Shown: one piece after another, positions 4,797 to 38,815 of the stretch
How the letters are laid out: each line of letters begins with the position of its first letter
Numbering within the stretch: the stretch's first letter is position 1
Origin: a phage
Length of the DNA: 42,822 bases
Reading direction: 5' to 3' (one strand)
NCBI GenBank assembly: GCA_018167975.1
Contig: GCA_018167975.1_4333.1
Position numbers and translations under genes: made by a program
The notes under the pieces: generated by a model
The model's database searches: none
Told to the model about the DNA's origin: nothing
The model's input: the letters and a program-made list of their open reading frames with translations, nothing else

Positions 4797-4830
4797 AACC
4801 CTCACTCCTCTGTCTCGTTTCGATAAGTGA

Positions 4831-4859
4831 ATAGTATCCTATTATGTTGGGGTGTGCAA
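4831..4859 (-). promoter_or_regulatory. Sigma70-like promoter (minus strand): -35 TTGCAC, 17-bp spacer, -10 TACTAT, with embedded AATAG-N4-CTATT palindrome
   Basis: rc of 4854-4859 = TTGCAC, rc of 4831-4836 = TACTAT; the 37 nt 4824-4860 are an exact reverse-complement copy of 26105-26141. Confidence 0.55.
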
Positions 4860-8567: not shown

Positions 8568-8598
8568 GTCAATTACTCCTTAGTCAGTTGATATGTGA

Positions 8599-11633: not shown

Positions 11634-11652
11634 TATCTGAATCAATTTAACT

Positions 11653-11677
11653 AAGGCCCTTCATTGGGCCTTTTTAC
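11653..11677 (+). terminator. Rho-independent terminator
   Basis: Stem AGGCCC (11654-11659) / GGGCCT (11666-11671), loop TTCATT, followed by TTTTT. Confidence 0.6.
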
Positions 11678-11687
11678 CGGAGTCAGA

Positions 11688-17181: not shown

Positions 17182-17315
17182 ACATCGTAGCCCCAATCCC
17201 AGCTTTACAGAAACGTATCAAGGAACTCGAAGAGGAAGTCCTAAGACTACGGCAACAGAGAGACGCCGCCAATGCGCAACTGGCGTTTATTCTGGAGAAG
17301 TTATCCGAAGAGTAG
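17178..17315 (+). CDS. Small coiled-coil protein (45 aa)
   Basis: Below cutoff; ATGA overlap with upstream gene; product LQKRIKELEEEVLRLRQQRDAANAQLAFILEKL is heptad-like; last gene before the convergent terminator. Confidence 0.3.
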   Translation: MNIVAPIPALQKRIKELEEEVLRLRQQRDAANAQLAFILEKLSEE

Positions 17316-17348
17316 AGAAAAGGCCCCGTTTGGGGCCTTAGTTTTATG
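17316..17348. terminator. Bidirectional Rho-independent terminator at convergence of replication (plus) and structural (minus) modules
   Basis: AAGGCCCC-GTTT-GGGGCCTT (17320-17339) followed by TAGTTTTATG on the plus strand and by TTTCTCTACT on the minus strand. Confidence 0.65.
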
Positions 17349-17365
17349 TTAAATTAAGCACAGGG

Positions 17366-17506
17366 CTACTCGCTCTTAGGCTCGCTCTTAGAATCAATCT
17401 CATGTTGCAGCGCCGACATGACCTTATTGAAGGCCGGAACTTCTTGACCTTTTAGATCTACGCGCATCATAAACTGCATAATTATCTTGATAATTTCTTC
17501 GCTCAT
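17366..17506 (-). CDS. Small hypothetical protein (46 aa) downstream of the tail fiber gene
   Basis: Below cutoff; ATG at 17504-17506 with GGGAGGT RBS 4 nt upstream. Confidence 0.3.
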   Translation of the reverse strand: MSEEIIKIIMQFMMRVDLKGQEVPAFNKVMSALQHEIDSKSEPKSE

Positions 17507-17520
17507 AGCCACCTCCCAAG

Positions 17521-18990
17521 TTAAGAAGGACCCATTATACCATGAGCAATCAGGGCGTCTGTAACCTTTTTAACATAACGGGCCAGTTCTTGCAGGGTAA
17601 CAGTCTCGGTGTTTTTTGAAACCCCGTCGGCGGTTCCGGTTAACTGGTTTATCCCCGTAACACGTGGCCCTAAAATTTTTGTCCCATTCAAGCGTATATT
17701 TAAATTAGAAAAATCAACCCACCCCTCGGACCGGTTAAACGCGAGATATGTGGTGTTTGCCGGACCAGTACCTACGGTAATTCGTTGGTTATCACCTAAT
17801 AAAATTGCGCAGTTTGAGGAAAACGTACTTTCTGTCAACGAAATACCGGTTCTAAATGCGCCACCGCGGAATCTTATACCGTTGGACACCAAAAGCACTG
17901 AACTCCCCTCGAGTCTAATAGCCTCCCCGTTCCCGACCTCTGTTAATGGCTCAGTTGGGGCAACAAAAGAGTTAGCCCGAAAAAGTGCACCGGTCCATAT
18001 ATAACCATTAGGGGCCGCGGAACCTCTCCCTATCACAAGCATCTGTGTTACCGGGTTACTATTGTCTTGGGTTACGCATACAAGCCCCCTTGTGCTCCCA
18101 CCAACAGCATTCTGCATCCACCCCATGTCTGGGCCGCGGTTATTTAGGTTAAACTCATGTGCAATAGTGCTTTTGGCACCTGTATCGATTGCTTCGCCAA
18201 GAACCGCGCCATATGACCACCCACCCCACGTCTCTGCATTACTGTGACGGGACTCACCGCGCATATGTTTAGCAATAAGTTGCCCTGTACCAGACGAATG
18301 GGTGGCTACTGAGGTATCTGTGGCCCCGTATGCAGAACCGCTAACTTTAGTGAGGGAGTGGTAAGAACAACCTTGCTCCCATCTTTTCACCTCGTCCTCG
18401 CGGGTAGCGGATGTAACCTTCTCGAGCCACTCTATTGGGAGAGGATTAGCGGTATCAGGTATTGAAAATCGCTGACGGAGGGCATTGTTGTAGGTTATAG
18501 TGTCGTTATCGTATATATTAGCACCTGCAGCATTTTCTCCGGTCCATCCACCACCACCGAAGAAATAACTCAGTCCCGTCCCGTCCGGGCCATTAAGCAC
18601 CGAGCGTATGGTAGCGTCGCCTACGTCAATCCAGTCCCCGTTTGGGTATATTCCGCCGGTTGACTGTGGAGTACTTCCAGCCGGTACTACCTTCGGCAGG
18701 GAACCGCGCCAGGTGTACACCGACCCACCCTCCTCCAACATGCCCTGATTTCTTGCAGTTACCGTACCTCCGTTCGTGAAGTCGCCGATTCGCTCGATGC
18801 CGATGTCGGAAATAACCTTAGGCACGGTCTTCTGTGTCTGACCAGTAACCTGATTTGTTGCGTAATCAATATCCGCGCCACCAGCAACGCCGCCGGATTT
18901 ACCGGTGATAACCTCAGCTTCGAAAATCTGGTGTTTCTTGGCGGTCTGTAAATCCGCCAGGCTTAAAACGTCACCGCATCCGCTTGACAT
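17521..18990 (-). CDS. Tail fiber / receptor-binding protein
   Basis: 489 aa, last large gene of the tail operon; Gly/Ser/Thr/Asn-rich with G-rich tracts (FFGGGGWTGENAAGAN); AAAGAGGA RBS; assignment by position and composition. Confidence 0.55.
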   Translation of the reverse strand: MSSGCGDVLSLADLQTAKKHQIFEAEVITGKSGGVAGGADIDYATNQVTGQTQKTVPKVISDIGIERIGDFTNGGTVTARNQGMLEEGGSVYTWRGSLPKVVPAGSTPQSTGGIYPNGDWIDVGDATIRSVLNGPDGTGLSYFFGGGGWTGENAAGANIYDNDTITYNNALRQRFSIPDTANPLPIEWLEKVTSATREDEVKRWEQGCSYHSLTKVSGSAYGATDTSVATHSSGTGQLIAKHMRGESRHSNAETWGGWSYGAVLGEAIDTGAKSTIAHEFNLNNRGPDMGWMQNAVGGSTRGLVCVTQDNSNPVTQMLVIGRGSAAPNGYIWTGALFRANSFVAPTEPLTEVGNGEAIRLEGSSVLLVSNGIRFRGGAFRTGISLTESTFSSNCAILLGDNQRITVGTGPANTTYLAFNRSEGWVDFSNLNIRLNGTKILGPRVTGINQLTGTADGVSKNTETVTLQELARYVKKVTDALIAHGIMGPS

Positions 18991-19002
18991 ATAGAGTCCT
19001 CT

Positions 19003-21630
19003 TTAACTAAAACCGTTGCTGAATCCGCCGGAGAAACCGCTACCGAAAGGTGCGACGCCGTCGTATTTATAGAAATCTGCTTCGTAGTTAATCCCCGTAA
19101 TCTTAACCGTTCTGTCGTCTCCTGGGTCAACTGTAGAAACAAGAATCATCTGAGCATTATGCCTTGCTTCGTTGCCGAATGAAAACTCAGTTTTTAGTGC
19201 GCTATTCCCTGTGTATATCGCCTCCTGAGGCGCAGAGAGCATAACCACTTCCCGTTCGTGACTTCCGGGAACTACCGCGACGCTCTGAACACCGCCGTCG
19301 CGCTTCTTAAGGATTAAAGAGTGGTCGTCACCCGGAGTAAATGTGACAGGCTGTGATAACGTCAGAGTAAGACCATTAACGGCAACAACATAGCCGTCTT
19401 GAGGCGCTACGCGCGAACCTTTAACGACGCTTATTGCGCGACCCGGCAGCACAAAAACTCCTTCTTCTGTCGCCGTAAAGGACACCGTGACTTTCTTCAA
19501 CAAGTTTTTCTGGTAACGTCGATAAGCTGCCCAATACGCCTGTCGATAGTTACGGATACCCTTAGAGTCGTACGTTTCGGTATTAACACCTCCTTCGGCC
19601 GGGATGCTAATAGTCTCTTTGACGTTAGTATCTGGGTCGATGTATGAAAACTTGAGACTATCGTATACCTGTGCGTCGTTGAATGTGCGCGTCCACTTTT
19701 CAGAAGCTGTGGTTTTGCTGCGGTGGGTGAATACCATCTCCGGCCCCATACGAGGGCGCTCGAAATCCAGTAATATGTCCTGCCCTTTACGATATGGAGT
19801 GCAGAAAATAGCATCAGCTATTGTGCTGATGATATCCTGCATGGTCATTTTATAATCGTCAAAAGTGTAGCAGAATTGGCCGGCCTCTGCGTTACCGAAA
19901 TAGTTTTCTATCTCGGTCTGAGTCGCTAACAACTTGTCCATATTGGATGTTGTTAGGTTGAGATTACCTACTGCCGGGTCGCGGGCAAGACGGATTAAGG
20001 ACTGAATCGCCTGAGTATTCGGCGTCATAACAGTGTCGAATGCGCCGTTGCCGAGGTATTTGTACACCATCTCTGTGGCAATCATACGTAGTTGCGGCTG
20101 CTTAATCTCCGCGGCCCGCGGCGTCTGCTTACGCGCAGAGTGTACTGTGGTACGATTGCCATAATGCGGCGTAGTGTCGCGGATCTGCCCATAAAGGTTG
20201 ATGTAGGAAACCTCGTCTACCACGGTCCCCTCGAAACTAAGGTCAAGGTTAGTAACACGGCGGGCGCGCACTCTAACTTTAGACCGCACGGGCAAGTCGG
20301 CGTAAATAGTAACACCTGTGTAATCCGCAGAACGACCTGATATAACGGCCTGTTTTGAGTAAACACCCCCGTACGGCACGCCAGTTTCATCAAGGAGTTG
20401 ATACTGAAGCTCGACAGTTACCGACGTGCGCAATTTACTGCCGTTGTCTTTATACATACCATTCGCGGCCGCGATGTTGGCTACTACGCGTTCAATTTCC
20501 AGGCGGTTTAAAGTGGTCCAGTCCGTTAACGACTTATCGTAGGTGTTAGATGGTGAAATCCATGCTTCGGTACCTTGCGTTAAAGGAGTGAATCCTGATG
20601 GCAATTTTTGCCATTCTGACAACATCCCTCCGGCGGCTACTCTTACCTCAAAGTCATCTACGTATGTAACGGTATAGCTACCACTGACGTTAGCCACGTC
20701 TTTTACCAGAATAAGGTTAAAAACAGCTATGTCCCCAACTGATAAAATCTCAGAGAAAGCAGAGTCGCCAGTGTTATCGCGGACGACACCAGTCGCCCCC
20801 TGCAATGAAATCTCCCCGGTATCACTGGGATTAACCCTGATGTCATTCTGCGCTTTAAGAACGACCCCATCTACCTCGTTCGAGGCAATAGTTATGAATA
20901 GATTTTGATTAATAGGATCCCCTACCAGAAGCTGAGGCGTATTTGTGTTGTTAGGGGACGTAAATGGGGCGTATACCGCTACAGAAGTTCCTGTAATCTC
21001 CTGTACTTTAGTATCGCCGTCGGTGATGTCTTCGGCTTTAATATCAAGATACCCGCGACCGGCGTCATAGTAGCCGTATTCAACTACCACACCTGCGTCG
21101 TTGAAGACCTTATACGTAGTCATGAGGTCATTAGGGATAGTCTGGACCCTGCCGCAAATATCATACGACCGTTCATACGGACGCGGTTTATTGTTTCGGT
21201 CCGTCAAGCTGTTGTTGGGGGACTCCGCCTGCTGGTTCGCTAAACTCGTTTTAGGCGTTTTCTGCGACGGAGAAATCAACTTGGTAACAAATTTAAGCAC
21301 ACCCAAAGGGTCCAGGAGTTTACCCAGAAAACCACCGCCGCCGCCAGCGCCCTCGATGATATGGAAAACGTCATCTTCTTTCAGCGCTTCGAAGTTTTCC
21401 GTTACGTCTGTATCATCACCAATCTCGCCGCGGTAAATACGCACAGGTACCCCGTCTGGGATGTTAGCAACGACGTATTCCGTCGGGGGTACGTTATACC
21501 GTTTGCGGTCAAAAGTACCGTCTTCGTTACGGGTGTAATGTAATATCAGCGCCAAAATTCTATCTCCGCATAAGTTTCGCGCAAGTCTTCCAGTCGGTCT
21601 AACCGTACCTGGCGACTCGCCAGCTCGCAA
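19003..21630 (-). CDS. Central tail fiber / host-specificity protein (lambda J-like) with fused I-like N-terminal domain
   Basis: 875 aa immediately after the K-like gene; N-terminal region resembles lambda gpI; true start uncertain (track start is TTG at 21630 overlapping the K-like gene by 85 nt). Confidence 0.6.
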   Translation of the reverse strand: MRAGESPGTVRPTGRLARNLCGDRILALILHYTRNEDGTFDRKRYNVPPTEYVVANIPDGVPVRIYRGEIGDDTDVTENFEALKEDDVFHIIEGAGGGGGFLGKLLDPLGVLKFVTKLISPSQKTPKTSLANQQAESPNNSLTDRNNKPRPYERSYDICGRVQTIPNDLMTTYKVFNDAGVVVEYGYYDAGRGYLDIKAEDITDGDTKVQEITGTSVAVYAPFTSPNNTNTPQLLVGDPINQNLFITIASNEVDGVVLKAQNDIRVNPSDTGEISLQGATGVVRDNTGDSAFSEILSVGDIAVFNLILVKDVANVSGSYTVTYVDDFEVRVAAGGMLSEWQKLPSGFTPLTQGTEAWISPSNTYDKSLTDWTTLNRLEIERVVANIAAANGMYKDNGSKLRTSVTVELQYQLLDETGVPYGGVYSKQAVISGRSADYTGVTIYADLPVRSKVRVRARRVTNLDLSFEGTVVDEVSYINLYGQIRDTTPHYGNRTTVHSARKQTPRAAEIKQPQLRMIATEMVYKYLGNGAFDTVMTPNTQAIQSLIRLARDPAVGNLNLTTSNMDKLLATQTEIENYFGNAEAGQFCYTFDDYKMTMQDIISTIADAIFCTPYRKGQDILLDFERPRMGPEMVFTHRSKTTASEKWTRTFNDAQVYDSLKFSYIDPDTNVKETISIPAEGGVNTETYDSKGIRNYRQAYWAAYRRYQKNLLKKVTVSFTATEEGVFVLPGRAISVVKGSRVAPQDGYVVAVNGLTLTLSQPVTFTPGDDHSLILKKRDGGVQSVAVVPGSHEREVVMLSAPQEAIYTGNSALKTEFSFGNEARHNAQMILVSTVDPGDDRTVKITGINYEADFYKYDGVAPFGSGFSGGFSNGFS

Positions 21631-21911
21631 TGGCTTACCATACCGTCATAGTATACTCCAGCGTGCCAGATTACACGGTTTCTGTGCCGTGTTGCCATCA
21701 GAACGGCATCGAAGTTTTGCGGAGTTTCTACGCGTACGAGGCCTTTGGCGTTTTTATGGCCTTCTTCAAATGCATCATTAATCTGTGTTGGCGATGCGAC
21801 GTTAAACTCAGGCGTGGACAGGCCCGCGTCCGCACGGACGTTACGCACATGGTGCCAGCAATTACGGCGGCGAAAGTCGTACGGAAGTCCGGTGTATACA
21901 CTAATGTTCAT
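21546..21911 (-). CDS. Tail assembly protein (lambda K-like) with NlpC/P60 peptidase domain
   Basis: 121 aa; Cys in RRRNCWHHV and His in HAGVYYDGMVSHC match the NlpC/P60 Cys-His pattern; position after the L-like gene. Confidence 0.65.
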   Translation of the reverse strand: MNISVYTGLPYDFRRRNCWHHVRNVRADAGLSTPEFNVASPTQINDAFEEGHKNAKGLVRVETPQNFDAVLMATRHRNRVIWHAGVYYDGMVSHCELASRQVRLDRLEDLRETYAEIEFWR

Positions 21912-22423
21912 GTAGACAAAACACCCCGTAACAATGGGATTACTGAAGGGGTCATTAACTCGCCAGTGGCTCTTTGGTTCAACATAGGAACGCCGACGTC
22001 GGCGGTAAATAGCCCCTTTTCCTGGTTGATCGACTGCAACTCGTACACAACAGGACCATCAGCCGGATAGGTTAAGTCCGTGCTGACGAAACGGCGGAAT
22101 ATAAACTTAGGCAACACGGTGTTATCGGGCGGTATACGGTCCATCTCATCGTCTAACTGGTTGCCGATGTCGGGTAATGCGAAGGACGCCCGCTGGTCCA
22201 TATCATTATTGTTAGCCGCGCCTTTAGCCTCCATAGGTGTAGCCTCGAACGTAACTACTTCTCCGGTCTCTAACGTTGCCGTCAGGTCAGAAGTTCCGCG
22301 CACAAGTAAATACCGCTTCGAAAGAAGCGGGTGAACTATCTCTAATGTAGTGTAGTCAATTTCGCCGTCTGGGTTAGAGGCCAGCTTACGGCGATAAGCG
22401 GCTTCTACTGATTCCTGGCTCAT
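21908..22423 (-). CDS. Minor tail protein (lambda L-like position)
   Basis: ORF 21908..22438; ATG at 22421-22423 in ATGA overlap with the upstream gene; assignment by synteny (TMP-M-L-K-J). Confidence 0.45.
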   Translation of the reverse strand: MSQESVEAAYRRKLASNPDGEIDYTTLEIVHPLLSKRYLLVRGTSDLTATLETGEVVTFEATPMEAKGAANNNDMDQRASFALPDIGNQLDDEMDRIPPDNTVLPKFIFRRFVSTDLTYPADGPVVYELQSINQEKGLFTADVGVPMLNQRATGELMTPSVIPLLRGVLST

Positions 22424-22914
22424 TGCATCGGGTCCCAAATTCGCGGAAACGTTGATTGCGCGGTTCCGTATGCTTTAAGGAATCCACCTAAGCAATCCCC
22501 ATAACAACCGAACAAATCCGGTAGATTCTTCGTAAGGCAGGTATCTTCCTGAATCGCAGTCCGCTCCGCGGTTGCTGTGAAAGTAATTACCCAGTTTTTA
22601 CCATCGTCGGTGCTGTCACTAATGTCCGACGTAATAAGTACCTGGTGGTCTTCGATACCTAAACCCGTATCGTGCGGCATGATAAATGAAGACGCACCGC
22701 CATCTATGTTGTTCAGGAAGCTATAGAACGCCTGTCGCCCGAGAGAAGATACGACAAGCGTAACGCTAATCGGCACTGGTTCAAAGTACGTGTCCCGCCC
22801 TTGACGGGGAACGCCGCCCTGAACTTCTGTACGCCAGATATTACTCCCTCGCGTCTGGGAGTACCCCTTCGACACTATTGGTCGAAGGGACATTGGGAAC
22901 CTTAAAGAAGACAT
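22420..22914 (-). CDS. Minor/distal tail protein (lambda M-like position)
   Basis: 164 aa directly downstream of the tape measure gene; assignment by synteny. Confidence 0.45.
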   Translation of the reverse strand: MSSLRFPMSLRPIVSKGYSQTRGSNIWRTEVQGGVPRQGRDTYFEPVPISVTLVVSSLGRQAFYSFLNNIDGGASSFIMPHDTGLGIEDHQVLITSDISDSTDDGKNWVITFTATAERTAIQEDTCLTKNLPDLFGCYGDCLGGFLKAYGTAQSTFPRIWDPMQ

Positions 22915-22917
22915 AGT

Positions 22918-31749: not shown

Positions 31750-31785
31750 GACCTTTCCTTATTACGGCCCCGAAGGGCCGTTGTA

Positions 31786-32136
31786 TTAAGATACAGTTGC
31801 TACGGTGCTGCTGGAGATAATATTACCATATACATCGTGAACAACCACTTTATACGTACCAGAATCGGCGGTAGTGGTTGACGCTTTAGCGTAGGTAGCC
31901 GCGGTAGCCCCGGCGATGGCATTGTTGTTCTTGTACCACTGGTAGGAATAGGGCTCCATACCGCCAGTTACCACTACGGTAAGAGTCATAGTCTGCCCTG
32001 CCGTAACTGCCGTTGTGGCGTTCAGTGCGGTAGAAAAAGACGCTGGCGAGATATTCGCCATGTCGATTTCAACCTGACCATCGGCAGGAGAATCGTCAGA
32101 AACACCGGTAATACGACGTTTGATTACATCAACCAT
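31786..32136 (-). CDS. Ig-like domain protein (probable capsid decoration/accessory)
   Basis: QTMTLTVVVTGGMEPYSYQWYKNN...SGTYKVVVHDVYGN shows the Ig-like YxW...GxY pattern. Confidence 0.5.
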   Translation of the reverse strand: MVDVIKRRITGVSDDSPADGQVEIDMANISPASFSTALNATTAVTAGQTMTLTVVVTGGMEPYSYQWYKNNNAIAGATAATYAKASTTTADSGTYKVVVHDVYGNIISSSTVATVS

Positions 32137-32148
32137 TTTTAAGCTCCT

Positions 32149-32448
32149 TTAGCTTACAGTTCCTGCGTTTTTAAGCGCAGTCAACAGATTTGCTACGGTA
32201 GTGCGCAGCGCGGTTACATCAGTTCGAAGTTTGTTGTACTCCGCTACAAGAGCATCGAACTCGGTCTTAGTCGGGGCATCAGCAGACTGCGCTCCTTCAC
32301 CAGCAGTAATGGCCGCGGGGGCGGCTACAGTAGCTGACTTTTTAACCCCGCCAACTACGCTGGTAGTAGCCGGCGTTACTGGGATGTCAAAGTCGCCGAA
32401 GTCGACATTCTGGAGACTACGCGGTAAGCCTTTTCCGGTCTTAGCCAT
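32149..32448 (-). CDS. Hypothetical head-associated protein (coiled-coil C-terminus)
   Basis: 99 aa immediately downstream of the major capsid gene. Confidence 0.4.
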   Translation of the reverse strand: MAKTGKGLPRSLQNVDFGDFDIPVTPATTSVVGGVKKSATVAAPAAITAGEGAQSADAPTKTEFDALVAEYNKLRTDVTALRTTVANLLTALKNAGTVS

Positions 32449-32507
32449 AATTTACCTCTTAGTAAATGAAAAGAGGGACCGAAGTCCCTCCCGATTATAG
32501 CTTAACC

Positions 32508-33557
32508 TTAAGCACCGACACCAGTTACCAGGAAGGCAATAGGTACATGCTTACGGTCAACAACGCGGTTCCAGTTGGAGGCGTTTGCCAGGTCCTGCCA
32601 GGAAGCAGAGCGTGCTACGGTTTCAGTACCGTTACCGGTGATTACCGCACTGGTGAAGCTGTAGCCCAGTGGGTGCAGCAACCAGGTCTTACGGGTCCAC
32701 AGGGTTTCAACACCGCCGCCGTTACCGCGAGACGCTTCACGCTCGTATTCCAGAGGGTTGGACGGGTTGCCCTCGCCGTAACCGATAGCACCGTTGCCGA
32801 AGATGATGGAGATGAACTTACGGCTAGGGCCAGTGCCGACTACGGTCATGCTGTCGTCAACAATCACGCGGTAGCCCTGGTAGGTGGCAAACATGGTGTT
32901 GTTGTCGGCATCACGGATGAAGTCGATGAGCTGTTGCTTACGCGCCTGTGCATACACAAAGCTGTGCATCGCGATAGCGCCCAGCACTTCACCACCGTTG
33001 CCCATCAGCGCATCGCCCATAGTCTGGGTAGCGTCGATGAATGCGCCAGCGTCGAAGCCCAGAGTAGCGGACACATCAACAACCATGTCGTTCTGCGTAT
33101 GGTATTCATCGGTAGCGGCTACGTTGTCGTTGTACAGACCGAGCGCGGTAGCAATCAGACGGCGTTGCGCCTGGCGCTGCCAGAAGTTATCCAGACGGGC
33201 CGCTACGGAGCGCAGCGGCTGCTGGCTGGTCAGTTCAACGGTCAGGTCTGCCTGTCCGAAGCCTTCGTTCAGATAAGCAACGCGCGCCATCATCTCACCG
33301 GTTTGCACATTACGCGGGGTAGCGATGTCCTGATACACGTCGTTCGAGTAATTAGGCTCGATAGACGTATCAATCGCTTTCCAGAAAGGAATGTTGGCGA
33401 TGCTGGACGGGCCGCGAGCAATCTCGGCAGCGTACGGAGTCGGGGTCAGGATACCGGACTGGAAGAATGCGGTTTTTTCCACCGGGTCCTCGGTCATGTA
33501 AGACGCCAGGACCGGGATGTTGCCAGTTACGATATCGCCGATAGTGGTAATTGCCAT
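32508..33557 (-). CDS. Major capsid protein
   Basis: 349 aa following the scaffold gene; TGAGGAAAT RBS; assignment by synteny and size. Confidence 0.7.
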   Translation of the reverse strand: MAITTIGDIVTGNIPVLASYMTEDPVEKTAFFQSGILTPTPYAAEIARGPSSIANIPFWKAIDTSIEPNYSNDVYQDIATPRNVQTGEMMARVAYLNEGFGQADLTVELTSQQPLRSVAARLDNFWQRQAQRRLIATALGLYNDNVAATDEYHTQNDMVVDVSATLGFDAGAFIDATQTMGDALMGNGGEVLGAIAMHSFVYAQARKQQLIDFIRDADNNTMFATYQGYRVIVDDSMTVVGTGPSRKFISIIFGNGAIGYGEGNPSNPLEYEREASRGNGGGVETLWTRKTWLLHPLGYSFTSAVITGNGTETVARSASWQDLANASNWNRVVDRKHVPIAFLVTGVGA

Positions 33558-33559
33558 TA

Positions 33560-34261
33560 TTATTTCCTCAGGGCTTTAAGTTGCCGTTCAAATTCGGCAG
33601 GGTTCGATTTATACAGAGCTAAACGCTCCGCTTCGCTCATGTCTTTAAACGCTGGTGCGGCCCCGCCGCCTTTGCTGCCGGAAGCCCCGCCGCCGGAAGC
33701 TGCATTTGCTTTAATCAAATGCGAAAACGCTTTGTGTTCGCGCAGGTATTTGCGGAACTGTTCCGGGTCAGTCGTGATTACGTTGCCATCTGCGCCTACA
33801 AACTTAGTAACCACGTCATCGCCTTCGAACTCAGTCTTAACGAACGGTGCGAGAATGTCCACTGCTTCCGGGGTGATAAAGTCACCTGCGAAAGAGCCTA
33901 ACACCGCTTTGCGTTCGCTGCCGAGGATGCGCTCTGCCATTCTGGAGATGCGACCATCTTTCTCGGCTAACACCGGGTCATACTGGCTACGAATCGTTTT
34001 TTCAAACTCGTCCATCTTACCAGCGGCTTTTAATGCCTCCTGGTGTGCGCGCTGCCGTTCTTCTTCGGCCTCTTTTGCTTTGCGAGCGGCTTCTTTCTTC
34101 TCCGCCAGCAATGCTTCCTGGTTGGCCTTAAGCCCGGCAACTTCTTTCTCAATCAGCGCCTGAACTTCTTCAGCGGTGAACATTTTCGGCGCGTCACCGC
34201 CACCGGCTTTATCTTCTGCTCCAGCTTCTTCCTGGAACGGATAACGTAAAAAACGATTCAT
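33560..34261 (-). CDS. Capsid scaffolding protein
   Basis: ORF 33560..34315; ATG at 34259-34261; charged, Ala/Glu/Lys-rich coiled-coil protein immediately upstream of the major capsid gene. Confidence 0.6.
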   Translation of the reverse strand: MNRFLRYPFQEEAGAEDKAGGGDAPKMFTAEEVQALIEKEVAGLKANQEALLAEKKEAARKAKEAEEERQRAHQEALKAAGKMDEFEKTIRSQYDPVLAEKDGRISRMAERILGSERKAVLGSFAGDFITPEAVDILAPFVKTEFEGDDVVTKFVGADGNVITTDPEQFRKYLREHKAFSHLIKANAASGGGASGSKGGGAAPAFKDMSEAERLALYKSNPAEFERQLKALRK

Positions 34262-34343
34262 AGTCAGTATGTCCCCTGGACGTTGGAACCCGGGCCACCC
34301 GGATTTACATGTCAAGAATAAATTATTCCAACATGCAAGGCAA

Positions 34344-34607
34344 CTATTCCAGAATATTCCTCACGTAATCCTGCAACATGAACACCTTCAGCCTCAGTTG
34401 CCGTACGCATTCTGCATTCTGAACGTCGGTAGCCAAATCCTCGTCCGCGTCGCTACTTGGTAGTGCCAGTTTGCACGGCGGCTGCATCATCGTCGTATCC
34501 GGGGATGGAATTGGCGTTTGCGACGGCGCGGGACTTGAGCAGGACGCGAGCATCATCGAAAGTGCACACGCTGCGGCCAGGCGTTTTAACGTACTTAACG
34601 ACTTCAC
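34344..34607 (-). CDS. Outer-membrane spanin (Rz1-like lipoprotein), overlapping the i-spanin gene in another frame
   Basis: GTG start at 34605-34607 with GAGGTGA RBS; signal peptide ending in lipobox LASC; Pro-rich mature region SSPAPSQTPIPSPD. Confidence 0.6.
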   Translation of the reverse strand: MKSLSTLKRLAAACALSMMLASCSSPAPSQTPIPSPDTTMMQPPCKLALPSSDADEDLATDVQNAECVRQLRLKVFMLQDYVRNILE

Positions 34608-34839
34608 GGGTGATCACCTCTGATTTCGTCTTGCCTTCGTTGTCAGCGGCTGCGGCCTTCGATTCATCCTGCTGCTGCCGTTGTGTTTTCTTCGCTAACT
34701 CAGCCTGTGCTTTCTGCTGTTGCTGCGAAACGAGATTCGCCTGGCCTTCGTGCCACCCGCTGTGGTATTGAAAGTAGCCGTGTGCGTATAACAGGATGAT
34801 GAAACATGCTCCTGCTACGACAGTTGCTTTAAGATTCAT
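34453..34839 (-). CDS. Inner-membrane spanin (Rz-like)
   Basis: N-terminal TM (VVAGACFIILLYA) followed by Gln/Ala/Lys-rich coiled coil; AAGGAG RBS; contains the out-of-frame Rz1-like ORF. Confidence 0.65.
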   Translation of the reverse strand: MNLKATVVAGACFIILLYAHGYFQYHSGWHEGQANLVSQQQQKAQAELAKKTQRQQQDESKAAAADNEGKTKSEVITREVVKYVKTPGRSVCTFDDARVLLKSRAVANANSIPGYDDDAAAVQTGTTK

Positions 34840-35090
34840 GTTTCTCCTTTCTCGATAAGTAAAGCCCCGCCATAAAGCGGGGCGCTAGTCCTTATCATTT
34901 AAACATAGAAACGGCGTAATCTCAGTAAACCAGTTACTTTTTACACAAGCAATAGAGTATGGCCCTTCCGAACGCGTCAGCGTAACTACACTCAGGACTT
35001 ACGTCCCGCTTCGTTACCTGCCCGCGCCGCGGTCGCTTGTTCATACTTCACAAGCTCAGGTGAAGCTTAGCATATTTTTAGTGAAAAGTC

Positions 35091-35106
35091 AACTATTCGA
35101 ATAGTT
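35091..35106. promoter_or_regulatory. Perfect 16-bp palindrome AACTATTCGAATAGTT (candidate regulator binding site)
   Basis: Self-complementary; shares the GAATAG/CTATTC half-site with the promoter-embedded palindromes; lies in the 380-bp intergenic region upstream of Rz and the 35222 moron. Confidence 0.4.
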
Positions 35107-35158
35107 TATTCCGACATTTACAATTGAGGGTAATAACTGGAATACGTAAACAAATAGT

Positions 35159-35187
35159 TTGCACACCCCAACATAATAGGGTACTAT
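35159..35187 (+). promoter_or_regulatory. Sigma70-like promoter: -35 TTGCAC, 17-bp spacer, -10 TACTAT, palindrome AATAGGGTACTATT
   Basis: TTGCAC 35159-35164, TACTAT 35182-35187; near-identical to the promoters at 26106 and 4831 (rc). Confidence 0.6.
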
Positions 35188-35221
35188 TCATTACATCGAA
35201 ACGAGAGATAAGGAATTTAGA

Positions 35222-35441
35222 GATGAACAAAGCTACCGCAAACGTGGTCCGCGCTATCGAAGAACTTTACGGCATTGATATCGCGAGCCGTGTGCTTATC
35301 GGAAACAAACGTAACTTTTTTACCTTTTGCACGGATGGTATGGAAGAGAACGATTTTAACAACGTTCAACGTTTTGCTAACGAACACGGTCTACGCAACG
35401 AGCCAGCAGGTTACAAGAAATTCGCTATATTCTTTAAATAA
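35222..35441 (+). CDS. Hypothetical protein encoded by a rightward moron
   Basis: ORF 35124..35441; ATG at 35222 with AAGGAA RBS; own promoter and terminator; opposite in orientation to the flanking head genes. Confidence 0.5.
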
Positions 35442-35470
35442 AACTAAGGCCCCGAAAGGGGCCTTTTATC
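35442..35470. terminator. Bidirectional Rho-independent terminator between convergent genes
   Basis: AAGGCCCC-GAAA-GGGGCCTT (35446-35465), U-tracts on both strands. Confidence 0.65.
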
Positions 35471-35930
35471 ATTCCGGCTTAGTGACCTTCGCCGCTTTAC
35501 TCACAGCCTCTACACCATCGGCATCAGTAACTTTAACGAAGTATTCGCCCGCAGCGTTAACCGTCAGAGACAAAGCCTCTTCCGGGGCGTTTACCACTTC
35601 CTTACCGTCTTTGTACCAGGTCAGCGCATACGGTGCTTTGCCTGCCTTAACTTCGACAGTGATAGTTGCGCTGCCGTCTGCCAGTTCAGCGTCTTTCGGT
35701 TGCACAGAGAAATACACATCGCCTGCGTCCACCAGATACGGAATCTCGTAAAGCATACCCGCTGCGGGTAGTGCAATACCGGTTTTATCTGCAAAAGGCA
35801 TGTCGTCTACTGGTGTACCTAGTACACTTTCGTCCCCAATAGACACCACGTTCTCACCGGAGCCAGACACACGAGCAAACTGGACTACACGACGTGAAGG
35901 CACATCAGTTACTTTGAAAAAGCCCATCAT
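35469..35930 (-). CDS. Ig-like domain structural protein
   Basis: ATITVEVKAGKAPYALTWYKDGKEV...AGEYFVKVTDADG shows Ig-like pattern; ATGA-type coupling with the head morphogenesis gene. Confidence 0.5.
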   Translation of the reverse strand: MMGFFKVTDVPSRRVVQFARVSGSGENVVSIGDESVLGTPVDDMPFADKTGIALPAAGMLYEIPYLVDAGDVYFSVQPKDAELADGSATITVEVKAGKAPYALTWYKDGKEVVNAPEEALSLTVNAAGEYFVKVTDADGVEAVSKAAKVTKPE

Positions 35931-36973
35931 TAATCCCCTTTCAGATAATCAGCGACACGTTTATCGAGTTCCGCCATCTGCTTAAGCGTGAGCGGATTCC
36001 CGAAACCATCTACAGATATTACGCGAAACTCTTCCGGCGATATACCGCTGTTACGGAAAATCTTACCGCGAACAGGGCCGAGTGCCTCATCGATAAACCA
36101 CGCCGGTTGTTGTTTCAGGAACTCGTAATAGGTTGTGTCCGCGCTTACCTGGGTTCCACCTTCTGCACCCTTAGCTGCGCGTTTTGCGCCCTTATCGAGG
36201 AAGTCGAACTCTGAACTGATTACCGGTGCCGTGGTGCTTCTGCACCCAAAATGGGCCGGAGGCATCGGCCCTTTCCCAATTTCCCACGTCATTCCGTCTC
36301 TCGCCCTGCAAATCGTACTGGTACGGCTGTCCAGTGTTGACACCCACTCGTACCTCTCGATGATATCGTCGTTCTGGCGGTACGTCTCGTTACGTGCTTC
36401 GTTGGATACGTGAGACAGCGCGGTGCGGATTACTGTAGCAGCGTATTTCTCTGATACGTCAGCCAGCCCACCTTTACCGACTACTTCTGTAACAATCTGT
36501 CGTGTTGTCTTACCCTGAACAAAGCCCATCTTAACTCCGGTTACAAGACGTGCTACTTCGGTTTCACCCCATCCCGACATCAGTTTAGTGAAGTCAACAG
36601 GCTTGCCACTTAACGATAACGGCTGAAACTCGGCAGCAGCCCACACCTGTTCGGCGGTAGGAGTAACAAATTCCGTGTCTACGTTGGTGGCCAGCGTCTT
36701 TACGTTCCACTCAGCCTCATACGCCGCCAGCTCCTTAAGGTCTTCTGTCAGCTTTGTTTGCCAGTCACCTGTAAGCCCGGTCAGTGCTTCTTCCAGGTCG
36801 CGTAATAGTTTATTCAGTCGCGAGGTGCTTCGCCCGTCGTCACCGAATAGCAGCACCTGCCGTTTGATTTCATCTCGCATTTCCTGAATGAAGGGTGTGA
36901 GGTCTTTCACTTCCCCGGACGCGGTGCGTTGCATCCATATCTGGTGACTGATTAGAGATGTAAGTAAGCTCAT
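35930..36973 (-). CDS. Head morphogenesis protein (SPP1 gp7 / Mu F-like minor capsid protein)
   Basis: ORF 35930..37030; ATG at 36971-36973 with GGAGG RBS; C-terminal TSTICRARDGMTWEIGKGPMPPAHFGCRSTT is the family hallmark. Confidence 0.75.
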   Translation of the reverse strand: MSLLTSLISHQIWMQRTASGEVKDLTPFIQEMRDEIKRQVLLFGDDGRSTSRLNKLLRDLEEALTGLTGDWQTKLTEDLKELAAYEAEWNVKTLATNVDTEFVTPTAEQVWAAAEFQPLSLSGKPVDFTKLMSGWGETEVARLVTGVKMGFVQGKTTRQIVTEVVGKGGLADVSEKYAATVIRTALSHVSNEARNETYRQNDDIIERYEWVSTLDSRTSTICRARDGMTWEIGKGPMPPAHFGCRSTTAPVISSEFDFLDKGAKRAAKGAEGGTQVSADTTYYEFLKQQPAWFIDEALGPVRGKIFRNSGISPEEFRVISVDGFGNPLTLKQMAELDKRVADYLKGD

Positions 36974-37017
36974 ATGCCCTCCTATAGTACCGCCAGTGTA
37001 ACGCATAAAAATAGTAT

Positions 37018-37046
37018 TTGCAGGCACCAATATAATAGGGTACTAT
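37018..37046 (+). promoter_or_regulatory. Sigma70-like promoter: -35 TTGCAG, 17-bp spacer, -10 TACTAT, palindrome AATAGGGTACTATT
   Basis: TTGCAG 37018-37023, TACTAT 37041-37046; followed by CAGGAGGG RBS and the ATG at 37072. Confidence 0.55.
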
Positions 37047-37071
37047 TCAGTTAACTTAAACAGGAGGGTGT

Positions 37072-37317
37072 ATGCAGGAATTACCTAGTTGCGAACGTGA
37101 GTTCATTGGCGGGTTCATACCGGTTAATAATCTCAGTATATCGGACTTATTTGACCTAAGAGAAAATGGCAGACTTTGGGTGTGCAATGCGAAAGATGCT
37201 TCAAAAGCTAGAGTATGGAACTTTAGTTTAATGCGCCGTCCGAACAAATCTGGCGAAGGTGCTGTCGGTATGGATTTGTTGCAACGCAAAGGTAAGCTAT
37301 TTATGAGAGTGCGATAA
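37072..37317 (+). CDS. Hypothetical protein encoded by a rightward moron
   Basis: 81 aa; own promoter, RBS AGGAGGG and terminator; sits between portal and head morphogenesis genes on the opposite strand. Confidence 0.5.
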   Translation: MQELPSCEREFIGGFIPVNNLSISDLFDLRENGRLWVCNAKDASKARVWNFSLMRRPNKSGEGAVGMDLLQRKGKLFMRVR

Positions 37318-37318
37318 A

Positions 37319-37348
37319 ACTAAGGCCCCTTACGGGGCCTTTTCTCTA
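37319..37348. terminator. Bidirectional Rho-independent terminator
   Basis: AAGGCCCC-TTAC-GGGGCCTT (37322-37341) followed by TTCTCT on plus; overlaps the portal stop codon. Confidence 0.6.
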
Positions 37349-38815
37349 CTCCTGTTGCTGTGCTGACTGCGGAATCTCCCCCGCCACCTGAGTAACAGCG
37401 CCTAACGGCACAGGTGCGTCCTCAATCGCCGTTGTAATCTCCTCGTCGGTCCAGTCAGTTACCCCGGCCTTACGCAGCGCGGAGTAGTAGGCGGTTGCTG
37501 GCAGTAAACCAGCGTTAATGTCTGCCATCCACTGTGCGCGGTCTTGCGCCGTCATCGGTTGCAGGAAGAACTCCATGTTCAGCTTGAACTCAATTTCCGT
37601 GCCTTCGCGCAAGCCCAGCATAGCAGCCACCCAACGCAACGCCTCTGTGTATGCCATGCTTACGTTACGCGCAATGGTTGCCATTACGGATGTATCAGCG
37701 CCACGTTGCAGGCGGGCTGATTCAGCGGTAATCTGCTGCGTCGGCGTGATAAGCTGCGCACCAATCTGGATGGCCTGATTCTCTTTATCCAGCATGTTCT
37801 GTTTGGCGAGGTTGTTCTCTCCGGCCTGAACCAGAAACGCATTGCCGCCGTAACCGATGTTATGGCCTGAGCGCGACCCCATGCGCACGCCGTGAGGGTT
37901 GGCTTCCGCCCACTGTTCCATGCTCATGTTCTCGCCCGGGGCAATAAACAGAGTCGGCTGGCCTACGACAAAGCTGGATTCCTCATTATCTGCGCTGTTG
38001 CGGAAATGCCCAATATTAAGCTCCGCCAACGGCAGCAAAGGGGCGTCGTCGATAGTAGCGTCGTTGTTGCTTGCGCCAATGAACGTGAACGGGATTTTGC
38101 CGCGTAACTGTTCGCCGAGTTCCGGGAAGATTTCGATTACTTCGTCCTGAGCGCCACCCTCGGCATCGAAGCGGTAAATGCGCTGGCGGTAGCGACCATC
38201 AATCAGGTCGAGGACACGATATTGCTCACCGAACTTGGTTTCGAACTCTGCACCAGGTTCTGAGTATTCCCATACTTCGCGCAACACGACCATAGTCACA
38301 CGGTTAACTGAACCGACGCGTGTCAGCCGCCAGTTGATGATGTTCTCCGCGGTATAGAATGCGATGACCGGGTTTAATAATCCCGCGTTCTGCTCCGCCG
38401 CCGTTGCTGCGGCTGTCTCCGGGGCGTCCACCAGCAACCCACCGCGGCCTACCGAGTCAATCTCCATTAGCGTATCCTGCGCGTGCTGCCACAGCCCGAC
38501 GCCCGAACCGTCGGCATTACGTAACAGGTACCCCAGTTCAGGCGGAATAATCTGTTCAGGGTCTTTGCGCATCACCGACCCAACCATCCCCGCCAGGGTA
38601 CGTTTGGTGAAGTTGTAGCAGATAGCGCCGTTCTCGTATTCTTCCTGGCGCTGCGCCGCGTAGGTAGGGTCAGGCTCGTTCTTCCCGACATTGCGCAGAT
38701 AACGAATAAGGTCGCCTTCCAGCGCATGACGTACCTTCTGCCATTTATCGAAGTGATGCAGCCATTCCCGGTGTTTTGTCTTAACACCCTGATTCTGACC
38801 GTTCATAGTTAACAT
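37346..38815 (-). CDS. Portal protein
   Basis: 489 aa directly downstream of the large terminase gene; AGAGGA RBS; assignment by synteny and size. Confidence 0.75.
   Translation of the reverse strand: MLTMNGQNQGVKTKHREWLHHFDKWQKVRHALEGDLIRYLRNVGKNEPDPTYAAQRQEEYENGAICYNFTKRTLAGMVGSVMRKDPEQIIPPELGYLLRNADGSGVGLWQHAQDTLMEIDSVGRGGLLVDAPETAAATAAEQNAGLLNPVIAFYTAENIINWRLTRVGSVNRVTMVVLREVWEYSEPGAEFETKFGEQYRVLDLIDGRYRQRIYRFDAEGGAQDEVIEIFPELGEQLRGKIPFTFIGASNNDATIDDAPLLPLAELNIGHFRNSADNEESSFVVGQPTLFIAPGENMSMEQWAEANPHGVRMGSRSGHNIGYGGNAFLVQAGENNLAKQNMLDKENQAIQIGAQLITPTQQITAESARLQRGADTSVMATIARNVSMAYTEALRWVAAMLGLREGTEIEFKLNMEFFLQPMTAQDRAQWMADINAGLLPATAYYSALRKAGVTDWTDEEITTAIEDAPVPLGAVTQVAGEIPQSAQQQE

Follow-up and report, generated by a model that had tools for sequence, protein, structure and literature searches.

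The window, that is, the whole stretch of 42,822 nucleotides analysed here, represents a Kagunavirus (Guernseyvirinae), a lytic siphovirus of E. coli with a 43-kb genome. At four junctions between convergent ORFs, J1 to J4, it carries the same hairpin, AAGGCCCC-N4-GGGGCCTT, placed 3-4 nt from either stop codon (Table 1). The exact copies lie at 17320-17339, 27937-27956, 35446-35465 and 37322-37341 with, in this order, the + strand loops GTTT, TTTC, GAAA and TTAC. Each hairpin is built from a perfect 8-bp stem, comprising a 6-bp core of six G-C pairs and two A-U pairs, and a 4-nt loop. The first-pass annotation had described four hairpins with one 8-bp stem and differing tetraloops, situated where the direction of transcription changes; it was right at all four sites, loops included. 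No exact copy arose in 100 dinucleotide-preserving shuffles. When up to three mismatches were allowed, the window contained six matches (0.12 expected), the two additional ones being a sequence at 11653-11672 with two mismatches and a weak match at 35572, inside a coding region.

The copies had also been said to differ only in the tetraloop. The stem is indeed common to all, but the shared part is longer and has a direction: it is a unit of about 30-38 nt that reads (G)AG-stop-(A)GAA(A)-hairpin-AGTTTTAT. Once oriented, J1 and J4 agree in 36 of 38 nt, and J2 and J3 have identical 30-mers (30/30 nt). Identity between copies extends 8-10 nt past the stem on each side and covers the last codon and the stop of unrelated genes, and the reverse complement of the tail, ATAAAACT, holds the TAA stop of the opposing gene at J2, J3 and J4. 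Comparison between genomes shows that the four copies are paralogs of one such unit and not independent inventions. The hairpin tail at J3 and J4 contains two in-frame stop codons. An Rfam scan of the whole window (E <= 1) returned nothing at gathering score, J3 matching the histone 3' stem-loop model at chance level, and a full-text literature search for the stem sequence retrieved unrelated primer and plasmid sequences only.

Table 1. Hairpin units, promoter repeats and islands in the window
Feature	Position	Strand	Sequence or content	Neighbouring genes
J1 unit	17310..17347	+	GAGTAGAGAA-AAGGCCCC-GTTT-GGGGCCTT-AGTTTTAT	Left, end of rightward replication operon (45-aa ORF, 17178-17315); right, leftward tailspike operon (48-aa ORF, 17366-17512; tailspike, 17521-18990)
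J2 unit	27927..27964	+	GAGTGAGAAA-AAGGCCCC-TTTC-GGGGCCTT-AGTTTTAT	Last gene of island A (27756-27932, +); tail tube gene (27961-29133, -), its TAA stop within the tail
J3 unit	35438..35475	-	Read on - strand: GGAATGATAA-AAGGCCCC-TTTC-GGGGCCTT-AGTTTTAT	Ig-like head decoration gene (35469-35930, -); island B gene (35223-35441, +)
J4 unit	37314..37351	-	Read on - strand: GAGTAGAGAA-AAGGCCCC-GTAA-GGGGCCTT-AGTTTTAT	Portal gene (37346-38815, -); island C gene (37072-37317, +)
Diverged fifth member	11645..11680	+	AAGGCCC-TTCATT-GGGCCTT, then TTTTTACC; - strand tail AGTTAAAT	
Predicted promoter repeat (class II)	26106..26137	+	TTGCAC-17 nt-TACTAT with AATAG-N4-CTATT palindrome	Island A, 5' end
Predicted promoter repeat (class II)	35159..35190	+		Island B, 5' end
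Predicted promoter repeat (class II)	37018..37049	+	Five mismatches to the other copies	Island C, 5' end
Predicted promoter repeat (class II)	4828..4859	-		Head of leftward early operon
Island A	26176..27932	+	Reverse-oriented within late structural region	
Island B	35223..35441	+	One 72-aa gene, 42.5% GC	
Island C	37072..37317	+	One 81-aa gene, 42.7% GC	

Further hairpins were considered as possible relatives of this family. Among the three shorter ones proposed earlier, the sequence at 11653-11672 belongs to it, having the family flank and a AGTTAAAT tail. This diverged fifth member lies just 3' of the ssDNA-binding protein gene (11007-11633), between co-directional genes, is conserved in other Kagunaviruses and is probably a one-way terminator or attenuator. 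Two others, at 15351-15366 and 31764-31781, were rejected as members; their stems and flanks are different, and both have a C(UUCG)G tetraloop on the sense strand and no U-tract, as does a further UUCG hairpin at 32473. The earlier suggestion that the hairpin at 31764-31781 acts in RNA stability or processing instead of termination is plausible because of its UUCG tetraloop and the lack of a U-tract. A fifth convergent junction (8344-8362) has an unlike hairpin, AAGGGGC-GTTAA-GCCCCTT.

The shared hairpins are predicted bidirectional terminators

All four hairpins are stable, the cores folding at -14.9 to -15.8 kcal/mol and the hairpins with 15-nt flanks at -15.5 to -19.8 kcal/mol (z = -2.5 to -4.2). 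On the tail strand, the stem is followed at its 3' side by a U-tract that is broken by AG (GGGGCC-UUAGUUUUAU), and on the opposite strand by GGGGCC-UUUUCUCU, UUUUUCUC or UUUUAUCA. The U-tracts previously noted on both strands are present as U-rich tails on either side. A simple scan for a strict T-run passes five of the eight strand-sides and fails three, in which UUUUCUCU-type tails start inside the A-U end of the stem.

The junctions thus combine convergent genes with a hairpin and a U-tract on either strand, as in bidirectional terminators, and have every sequence feature of an intrinsic terminator: a GC-rich stem-loop, a U-rich tract, a position downstream of the stop codon and pairing that is kept in relatives. 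Existing annotation agrees. ARNold calls the same hairpin a terminator on both strands in Kagunavirus fBC-Eco01 (Table S2), and Serratia phage eta has, at the equivalent position, a hairpin annotated as a rho-independent terminator for both strands. We infer from these features that J1 to J4 are bidirectional intrinsic (Rho-independent) terminators. Host RNA polymerase would read all four as two-way stops, the A-rich flank of one strand doubling as the U-tract of the other. They would keep transcription of the rightward replication operon and of the three reverse islands (see below) from antisense entry into the late structural genes, and vice versa.

J4, J3 and J2 place predicted strong terminators within the late structural genes, interrupting their cluster. 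We searched the late strand for restart promoters after each island and saw none that was convincing, the only shared motif being the palindromic operator core; this applies above all to the 42 nt that separate island C from the head-morphogenesis gene. Hence, some read-through, unrecognised promoters or antitermination must exist. A literature search for transcript mapping in this phage group yielded only coarse temporal RNA-seq without 3' ends, from a Kagunavirus study that reports temporal classes only (PMC12645636).

Predicted promoter repeats and hairpins bracket three low-GC islands

Three low-GC, reverse-oriented islands (A, B and C) are each bracketed by a repeated, predicted early promoter at the 5' end and the hairpin, a predicted terminator, at the 3' end. 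The two elements occupy opposite cassette ends, separated by the cassette genes (220-1800 nt). The repeat is inferred to be a sigma-70-type promoter with a palindromic, operator-like core, and the leftward early operon behind the copy at 4828..4859 has both promoter and leader sequence in common with the islands. Island A encodes a superinfection-immunity protein, a metallophosphoesterase-type 'DNA repair exonuclease' and two small proteins without assigned function. The GC content of the islands is 38-43% (38.5% for gene A1 and 41.2% for A4) as compared with 51-56% in the flanking core genes; their base composition differs from that of their neighbours except for the exonuclease gene A2 (50.4% GC), which is not atypical. 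Among close relatives the islands are present, absent or replaced, between conserved core genes.

The stem is conserved across genera while the loop inverts

Conservation was assessed in 16 genomes picked by BLAST and not by motif. The stem is identical at J1 to J4 in Kagunavirus and Jerseyvirus, though the anchor proteins are 67-80% identical, and recurs at two of the four junctions in Cornellvirus. Of the 14 compared genomes with the anchor gene, 13 have the J1 hairpin, the stem of the Klebsiella phage being a variant. The J2 position also has a hairpin in Cornellvirus, Klebsiella phage VLCpiS11a (AAGGGGCC/GGCCCCTT) and Serratia phage eta. Compensated stems occur at the same junction positions (AAAGCCCC/GGGGCTTT, GAAGCCCC/GGGGCTTT and AAGGGGCC/GGCCCCTT); these are few events, and the stem is mostly invariant. 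Stem variants were tabulated directly; MAFFT, applied to 31 junction hairpins, offset the 5' arm of sequences with a 5-nt loop by one column. Variants of the G-U type, GAGGCCCC...GGGGCCTT in LM08P1 and AGGGCCCC at J3 of Cornellvirus, retain RNA pairing and lose DNA pairing. For comparison, a control hairpin of unrelated sequence located after the capsid gene (GAGGGAC-TTCG-GTCCCTC) is as invariant between Kagunavirus and Jerseyvirus as J1 to J4, and is compensated in Cornellvirus.

The unit does not always point the same way with respect to the island. In Kagunavirus J2 is inverted relative to J3 and J4, and the J2 units of Kagunavirus and Jerseyvirus have opposite orientations, an arrangement at odds with a simple duplication of entire cassettes. 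Jerseyviruses retain the J3 hairpin without an island, and their islands have no closely similar promoter repeat. Both the J4 hairpin and island C are missing in Ivi, LM02P1, LM08P2 and BUCT823, where a short AGCCCC-GAAA-GGGGCT hairpin is found. Outside this group, the matches listed (at least 120 loci) include single copies of the bare stem, with T-rich sequence around them, from over 100 unrelated viral contigs, so that the stem alone could recur by convergence. A 27-nt pattern of the unit (23 specified bases) is confined to two contigs in 185,579 bacterial species genomes, one of them phage-like (Jerseyvirus-like). We rejected a host origin of the unit, the pattern being absent from bacterial genomes save those two contigs.

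Between relatives the loop repeatedly changes to its reverse complement. At J2 we counted GAAA 12 times and TTTC 25 times, along with the pairs GGAA/TTCC and GTTT/AAAC; J1 likewise shows three reverse-complement pairs. These flips occur with identical flanks in at least three separate flank groups, a recurrent pattern that is new here. Minute inversions at hairpins are known from non-coding hairpins of chloroplasts. As in minute inversions made by template switching, the loop becomes its reverse complement and stem and flanks stay the same, and the process can keep stems perfectly paired; unlike the known cases, the inversions here recur at one phage terminator across close genomes, for which we found no description at phage terminators. 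Template switching has been published as giving rise both to loop inversions and to stems that stay perfect (PMC8794818). The palindrome loop would accordingly undergo small inversions at the DNA level, most likely caused by template switching during replication.

Cassette contents turn over between the shared ends

Across relatives, the gene next to the hairpin belongs to at least 9, 10 and 4 unrelated families at J2, J3 and J4, respectively. Most of these island genes stop at the same 4-nt offset, and unrelated ones have a stop-AACT joint in common. Two gene families occupy either J3 or J4, depending on the genome. The whole cassette of island C (37001-37346) shares 92% identity with one that the Kagunavirus LM08P2 carries in the island B position, and NTEC3 and phiSD1 have the island C gene family in the early-left operon as well. 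In Ivi, LM02P1, LM08P2 and BUCT823, the segment of island B from the promoter repeat to the hairpin tail contains unrelated genes instead; homology to these four relatives stops at 35189-35205, in the promoter repeat and leader, and restarts at 35433-35438, in the hairpin tail. Island B is absent from PDP21P8, K1ind1-sized contigs and Jerseyviruses. The flanks of J1, J2 and J3 diverge directly past the unit, and at J1 at least 17 different tailspike 3' ends start directly after AGTTTTAT. A homologue of the small gene adjacent to J1 is also present, along with the same hairpin unit, on an unrelated viral contig of 73 kb.

The first-pass annotation had offered two sources for the uniformity of the hairpins, namely spread together with morons and recognition by a common factor. 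The former gains support from the bracketing by promoter and hairpin, the breakpoints at both repeats and the presence of the same gene at different sites. We consider it likely that the hairpins are two-way terminators as well as paralogous cassette ends, alike through recombination and selection, with loops that invert. The standard Kagunavirus cassette has the promoter repeat as its 5' end, the hairpin unit as its 3' end and low-GC accessory early genes inside. Recombination within the shared ends would swap cassette contents between phages and between sites, and purifying selection on the stem would act as well, the two together keeping all copies the same. The breakpoints at the hairpin could partly reflect selection and not mechanism, because only intergenic joints are viable.

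Alternative explanations

Under the second source, a dedicated phage or host factor (an antiterminator or terminator RNA-binder, a processing nuclease or a DNA-binding protein) would recognise the hairpin and thereby keep the copies identical. This agrees with the 16 stem bases being invariant at four paralogous sites in two to three genera while loops and neighbours diverge, with the many early proteins without known function and with the need of late transcription to get past the terminators somehow. However, the loops invert and are of different sequences and lengths (4 or 5 nt), the same junctions in other genomes have compensated stems, and the bare stem occurs in the unrelated viral contigs described above. 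Family scans of 20 early proteins and the Ivi annotation revealed no antiterminator or RNA-binding family. Because the unrelated capsid hairpin is equally invariant, conservation between genomes needs no special factor. Common recognition is thus neither needed nor supported, and we regard it as improbable. A role mainly as RNA 3'-end stabilisers or processing sites, with the hairpins protecting mRNAs after termination elsewhere, seems unlikely as well. Stable GC hairpins at mRNA 3' ends protect from 3' exonucleases, and the UUCG hairpins without U-tract in the window may do so; J1 to J4, by contrast, have U-rich tracts directly 3' of the stem on both strands and sit exactly at convergent junctions. 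RNase III needs about 20 bp or more, whereas the stem has 8 bp and at most about 14 pairs if weak A/G-U flank pairs are included. Stabilisation is in any case compatible with termination, as RNA released at a terminator is itself stabilised by the hairpin.

The copies might also have converged independently on an optimal compact two-way terminator, without shared ancestry or any role in recombination. The recurrence of the bare stem with T-rich flanks in unrelated viral contigs and the functional requirement for A-rich and U-rich flanks speak for this, but they leave aside the identity that runs past the stem into the last codon and stop of unrelated genes, the stop-AACT joint, the near-identical cassette at another hairpin site in LM08P2 and the rarity of the 27-nt pattern in bacterial species genomes; convergence appears very improbable. 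We give equally little weight to a primary role in DNA, in which the hairpins would be cruciform or hairpin sites of recombination, replication or packaging (attC-like or origin-like) and termination would be incidental. The flip-flop of the loop does show that the palindrome is processed as DNA, and cassette boundaries coincide with it. Replication of any short, perfect palindrome is, though, expected to invert the loop as a by-product (PMC8794818), the copies are found solely at gene ends and with U-tracts, and the G-U-type variants in LM08P1 and Cornellvirus retain pairing in RNA and not in DNA. The Ivi annotation and partial family scans contained no integrase or site-specific recombinase.

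Relation to known elements and implications

The hairpin is a known kind of element and not a new molecular machine. As in other bidirectional intrinsic terminators at convergent genes, a GC hairpin stands between an A-tract and a U-tract, and the mechanism is no different; what differs from the usual case is that four or five sites per genome use one sequence of about 30 nt, fixed across genera. Two repeat classes were considered and rejected. At an integron attC-like site a tyrosine recombinase (IntI) would be expected, and no integrase or recombinase was found (Ivi annotation, partial scans); the palindrome is moreover perfect, without extrahelical bases. The unit does not resemble REP- or MITE-like repeats, as only 4-5 copies exist, all at gene ends, and the pattern is found in just the two bacterial-set contigs.

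A moron, a concept attributed to Hendrix and Juhala, is said to be a unit of promoter, gene and terminator inserted between core phage genes. The islands resemble this arrangement, yet they depart from known morons in that their ends are standardised (one promoter repeat and one terminator unit, shared by all), their phage group is strictly lytic and one gene can be found in different slots. In Serratia phage eta, genes 45 and 60 were termed morons (PMC3918226), and their positions match islands A and B.

A further parallel is the PeSL (promoter-early stem-loop) of T4-like phages, which mediates modular shuffling (PMC2839356, PMC4122927). In both systems a repeated terminator stem-loop and an early promoter mark the breakpoints of accessory-gene exchange, which occurs by homologous recombination in PeSL; in our comparison, breakpoints fall in the motif at island B and at the J1, J2 and J3 flanks. 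A PeSL combines terminator and promoter in a single composite motif, which lies between co-directional genes in the hyperplastic regions of large myoviruses. Here, instead, promoter and hairpin stand at opposite ends of a reverse-oriented cassette, the terminator is bidirectional and shared by a late gene, and only 4-5 copies exist in a 43-kb siphovirus. Guernseyvirinae might possess a PeSL-like 'plug-and-play' system, in which the promoter/operator and the terminator unit serve as homology arms that shuffle early genes and the tailspike module between slots and phages, occasionally involving unrelated phages, while template switching keeps the palindrome perfect and flips the loop. We advance this tentatively and give it slightly less than an even chance. 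If true, the uniformity of the hairpins would be the footprint of an active recombination mechanism and not of termination alone.

Kagunaviruses and Jerseyviruses are widely isolated as candidates for phage therapy and biocontrol directed at E. coli and Salmonella. The three or four insulated slots, each with a predicted promoter, a payload and a two-way terminator, tolerate gene replacement and may serve as landing sites for engineering. The J1 unit is the outer boundary of the host-range tailspike module, which predicts the joints for natural or designed swaps of receptor-binding proteins. These genomes also offer natural material for the study of loop inversion in a functional palindrome, and a small-genome example of how shared regulatory ends can organise the turnover of accessory genes outside the T4-like phages.

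A hairpin family at convergent junctions

The pattern AAGGCCCC-N4-GGGGCCTT has four exact matches in the window and none in 100 dinucleotide-preserving shuffles, confirming the four copies reported in the first-pass annotation. Allowing up to three mismatches gave six matches (0.12 expected), the extra ones being 11653-11672 and a weak match within coding sequence. Reading the flanks showed that the repeat exceeds the stem originally reported and has an orientation: one flank is AGTTTTAT in all four copies, the other is (G)AG-stop-(A)GAA(A), which at J3 becomes GAA-TGA-TAA. In self-comparisons of these units (stop codon, hairpin and conserved tail), J1 (17310-17347) and J4 (37351-37314) shared 36 of 38 positions, and J2 (27935-27964) and J3 (35467-35438) all 30. 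Folding, proposed earlier as a check, gave stable structures, with -14.9 to -15.8 kcal/mol for the cores and -15.5 to -19.8 kcal/mol (z = -2.5 to -4.2) with flanks. The observation holds up and has a good explanation.

The window represents a lytic E. coli siphovirus of the genus Kagunavirus (Guernseyvirinae) and has 92% identity to Kagunavirus LM02P1 across 97% of a 24-kb query. On a gene map built from the annotated relative Ivi and ORF lists, the four junctions carrying the hairpin (J1-J4) are all convergent, so that the long copies do lie, as first described, where transcription changes direction. The stem is 3-4 nt from the stop codons of both convergent genes, and the conserved tail (ATAAAACT) includes the opposing gene's TAA at J2, J3, and J4. 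Islands A, B, and C are small + strand blocks within the - strand structural region. At a fifth convergent junction the hairpin is another one (AAGGGGC-GTTAA-GCCCCTT) and overlaps the HTH regulator's stop codon; the family therefore occupies four of five such junctions. The Klebsiella relative VLCpiS11a carries AAGGGGC(C)-type stems at several junctions. A 48-aa - strand ORF (17366-17512) separates J1 from the tailspike stop codon (region 17340-17520); it is also present in LM02P1 and absent from Ivi, whose tailspike end adjoins the hairpin.

Positions of the hairpins, islands, and associated repeats in the window
Feature	Position	Strand	Context
J1 hairpin (start)	17320	+ (by tail)	Oriented loop GTTT; end of rightward replication operon, facing leftward tailspike and tail operon
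J2 hairpin (start)	27937	+ (by tail)	Oriented loop TTTC
J3 hairpin (start)	35446	- (by tail)	Oriented loop TTTC
J4 hairpin (start)	37322	- (by tail)	Oriented loop GTAA
Island A	26176-27932	+	Ends at J2, facing tail tube gene
Island B	35223-35441	+	Ends at J3, facing Ig-like decoration gene
Island C	37072-37317	+	Ends at J4, facing portal gene
Fifth convergent junction	8344-8362		Between 8024-8338(+) and HTH regulator gene 8352-8567(-)
Promoter repeat, islands	26106, 35159, 37018	+	
Promoter repeat, further copies	4859-4828 (leftward early operon head), 3383-3366		Shared leader
TGAATAGTAnCCTATTAT	3366-3383, 4828-4845, 8596-8613, 8641-8658, 10928-10945	+	
TGAATAGTAnCCTATTAT	26120-26137, 35173-35190, 37032-37049	-	
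C(UUCG)G hairpins, sense strand	15351-15366(+), 31764-31781(-), 32471-32492(-)		Between co-directional genes

Predicted bidirectional termination

The hairpins have a GC core and sit at the ends of transcription units. Their A-U stem ends continue into U-rich tracts on both strands, as the first reading had it, with UUAGUUUUAU on one strand and UUUUCUCU, UUUUUCUC or UUUUAUCA on the other; a simple terminator scan flagged five of the eight strand-sides. The fBC-Eco01 paper has this hairpin in its supplement among the ARNold terminators, on both strands (e.g., GTAAAGAAAAAGGCCCCACTACGGGGCCTTAGTTTTATTT). Serratia phage eta, which has a related structural module, carries rho-independent terminators on either strand of the J2-equivalent position in its GenBank annotation. 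These two independent annotations agree with a bidirectional reading, and the J1-J4 hairpins show every sequence-level feature of bidirectional intrinsic terminators. The late structural cluster is interrupted by J4, J3, and J2. Convincing late-strand restart promoters were not found, and one is least evident in the 42 nt separating island C from the head-morphogenesis gene; family scans (20 early proteins) found no recognisable antiterminator. The sole Kagunavirus transcriptome paper found (PMC12645636) gives temporal classes only.

Among the C(UUCG)G hairpins, the one following the capsid gene has a U-tract, is kept from Kagunavirus to Jerseyvirus and is probably an attenuator; the other two, without U-tracts, may be mRNA stabilisers. 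An ORF-free stretch of about 320 nt (34840-35158) separates the start of the spanin gene from the island B promoter; among Kagunaviruses it shows 95.7-97.8% identity, against about 87% for the flanking genes. The - strand of this stretch carries a perfect palindrome (AACTATTCGAATAGTT), a promoter-like TTGACT-17-TGcTAAGCT, a leader of about 200 nt (fold z = -2.3) and, immediately 5' of the first late gene, a terminator-like hairpin (34883-34864). This candidate late leader or non-coding RNA resembles a promoter-proximal terminator under antitermination control.

Identity between paralogous sites

For comparison, 16 genomes were picked by BLAST independently of the motif (seven Kagunavirus-like, six Jerseyvirus, Cornellvirus SP-031, Klebsiella phage VLCpiS11a, and Serratia phage eta), and the regions directly 3' of the helicase operon, tail tube, Ig-like, and portal genes were inspected. 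The search of relatives suggested earlier was productive: Kagunavirus and Jerseyvirus have the identical stem AAGGCCCC/GGGGCCTT at all of J1-J4, and Cornellvirus has it at J1 and J2, beside anchor proteins of only 67-80% identity. Loops vary in sequence and measure 4 or 5 nt. Paired stem variants occur at J3 in BUCT823 (AAAGCCCC/GGGGCTTT) and PDP21P8 (GAAGCCCC/GGGGCTTT), and at J2 in VLCpiS11a (AAGGGGCC/GGCCCCTT) and phage eta (AAAGGCCC/GGGCCTTT). IMG/VR loci were chosen by pattern, from which the stem identity of the searched copy follows. A 13-kb scaffold of a Bacteroidota assembly ('Taishania pollutisoli' scaffold23, NZ_JACVEL010000023.1; L188) encodes the C-terminus of a Jerseyvirus-type tail tube protein (73.6% identity), with the Jerseyvirus J2 unit after it, and is most likely Salmonella-phage contamination.

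Recognition by a common factor had been offered as one reason for the uniformity of the copies in the window. An unrelated hairpin after the capsid gene (GAGGGAC-TTCG-GTCCCTC) is equally invariant between Kagunavirus and Jerseyvirus, and compensated in Cornellvirus (GAGGGGC/GCCCCTC). Terminators of this group are thus normally conserved between genomes, for which no special recognition factor is needed; what needs explaining is the identity between paralogous sites.

Recurrent loop inversion

At J2 (n = 43), each loop is found along with its reverse complement: GAAA (12) and TTTC (25), GGAA (1) and TTCC (2), GTTT (2) and AAAC (1). J1 has three such pairs. The flanks are unchanged by these flips, and both orientations occur inside at least three separate flank groups; examples at J1/J2 among the collected loci are L008 versus the window, L003, L037, and L016 versus L028, and L058 versus L057. 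Three complementary pairs would arise from six random distinct tetramers with a chance of about 8e-7, and their origin by four simultaneous substitutions, several times over, is implausible. Loop toggling is the product of recurrent small inversions of the terminator palindrome. The inversions match the pattern that would be expected of replication template switching, a process also able to preserve perfect pairing in stems (PMC8794818); alternatively, the loops may have flipped by short-patch conversion between inverted paralogues.

Cassette ends and gene turnover

A second repeat family lies at the opposite end of each island. This promoter repeat, TTGCACACCCCAACATAATAGG(A/G)TACTATTCA, reads as a sigma-70-type TTGCAC-17-TACTAT with an AATAG-N4-CTATT palindrome, and the fBC-Eco01 paper lists the motif as 'phage promoter'. 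The palindrome-containing TGAATAGTAnCCTATTAT has eight copies in the window (0.06 expected); five have TTGCAC-17-TACTAT on the opposite strand, and those at 8641 and 10928 occupy the spacer of strong rightward TTGACA...TATAGT promoters. The predicted TTGCAC-17-TACTAT promoters would drive the leftward early operon and the islands, and a phage HTH regulator probably uses TGAATAGTAnCCTATTAT as its operator, with 8352-8567(-) and 5224-5433(+) as candidates for the regulator. On the - strand, 26023-26087 gives a sub-threshold Rfam match to int-alpA RNA (32.4 bits; gathering score 35.8; E = 0.0055); the match falls in the untranslated region that separates the tail assembly chaperone gene from the island A promoter region. 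Elsewhere, 8004-8027 and 10745-10768 (GTGACAGAGGAGGATTTGGAATGA, 23 of 24 identical) form the final 24 nt of the unrelated + strand genes 5757-8027 and 9512-10768; since they include a Shine-Dalgarno sequence and an ATGA stop/start overlap, they look like a duplicated translational-coupling joint.

The islands have 38-43% GC (neighbours, 51-56%) and encode a superinfection-immunity protein, a metallophosphoesterase-type exonuclease, and small proteins without known function. Against four other Kagunaviruses, island B homology breaks off at 35189-35205 and returns at 35433-35438, coinciding exactly with the promoter repeat and the hairpin tail, and the intervening gene is replaced. Across all loci containing the anchor genes, hairpin-adjacent genes fall into at least nine families at J2, ten at J3, and four at J4, most with the stop codon at the same 4-nt offset. 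Two families occur at J3 in some genomes and at J4 in others. The island C cassette (37001-37346) is 92% identical to one in the island B slot of LM08P2, its gene also occupies that slot in GZMU_E2010, and NTEC3 and phiSD1 carry more distant homologues in their early-left operon. Where island C is missing, hairpin 4 is missing too, and a short AGCCCC-GAAA-GGGGCT hairpin takes its place. Low GC, accessory functions, replacement, and slot changes are together evidence that the islands act as accessory cassettes. At J1, AGTTTTAT is directly followed by any of at least 17 different tailspike 3' ends; tailspike modules of relatives diverge from exactly the hairpin tail onward.

Breakpoints at the repeats, gene turnover, and genes changing slots support modular spread with the morons, the other explanation put forward at first. 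The hairpin breakpoints may partly reflect which recombinants survive rather than sites of recombination, and unit orientation relative to the island is not constant, J2 being flipped between genera. An otherwise dissimilar 73-kb viral contig (IMGVR_UViG_3300045988_020372, L010) encodes at 13300-13560 a homologue of the J1-adjacent 45-aa coiled-coil protein (LRQQRDAxNAQL motif), followed at a convergent junction by the same AAGGCCCC hairpin and ATAAAACT tail; a gene and its terminator possibly moved together between phage groups. T4-like phages provide the closest described analogue in their PeSL, where shared regulatory ends mediate shuffling, although the architecture here differs.

The hairpins are a paralogous family of predicted bidirectional intrinsic terminators; they also serve as the standard 3' terminus of moron-like early cassettes and delimit the tailspike module on its outer side. 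They exemplify already known kinds of element and provide a neat case of loop inversion, and the finding has practical value for engineering these phages.
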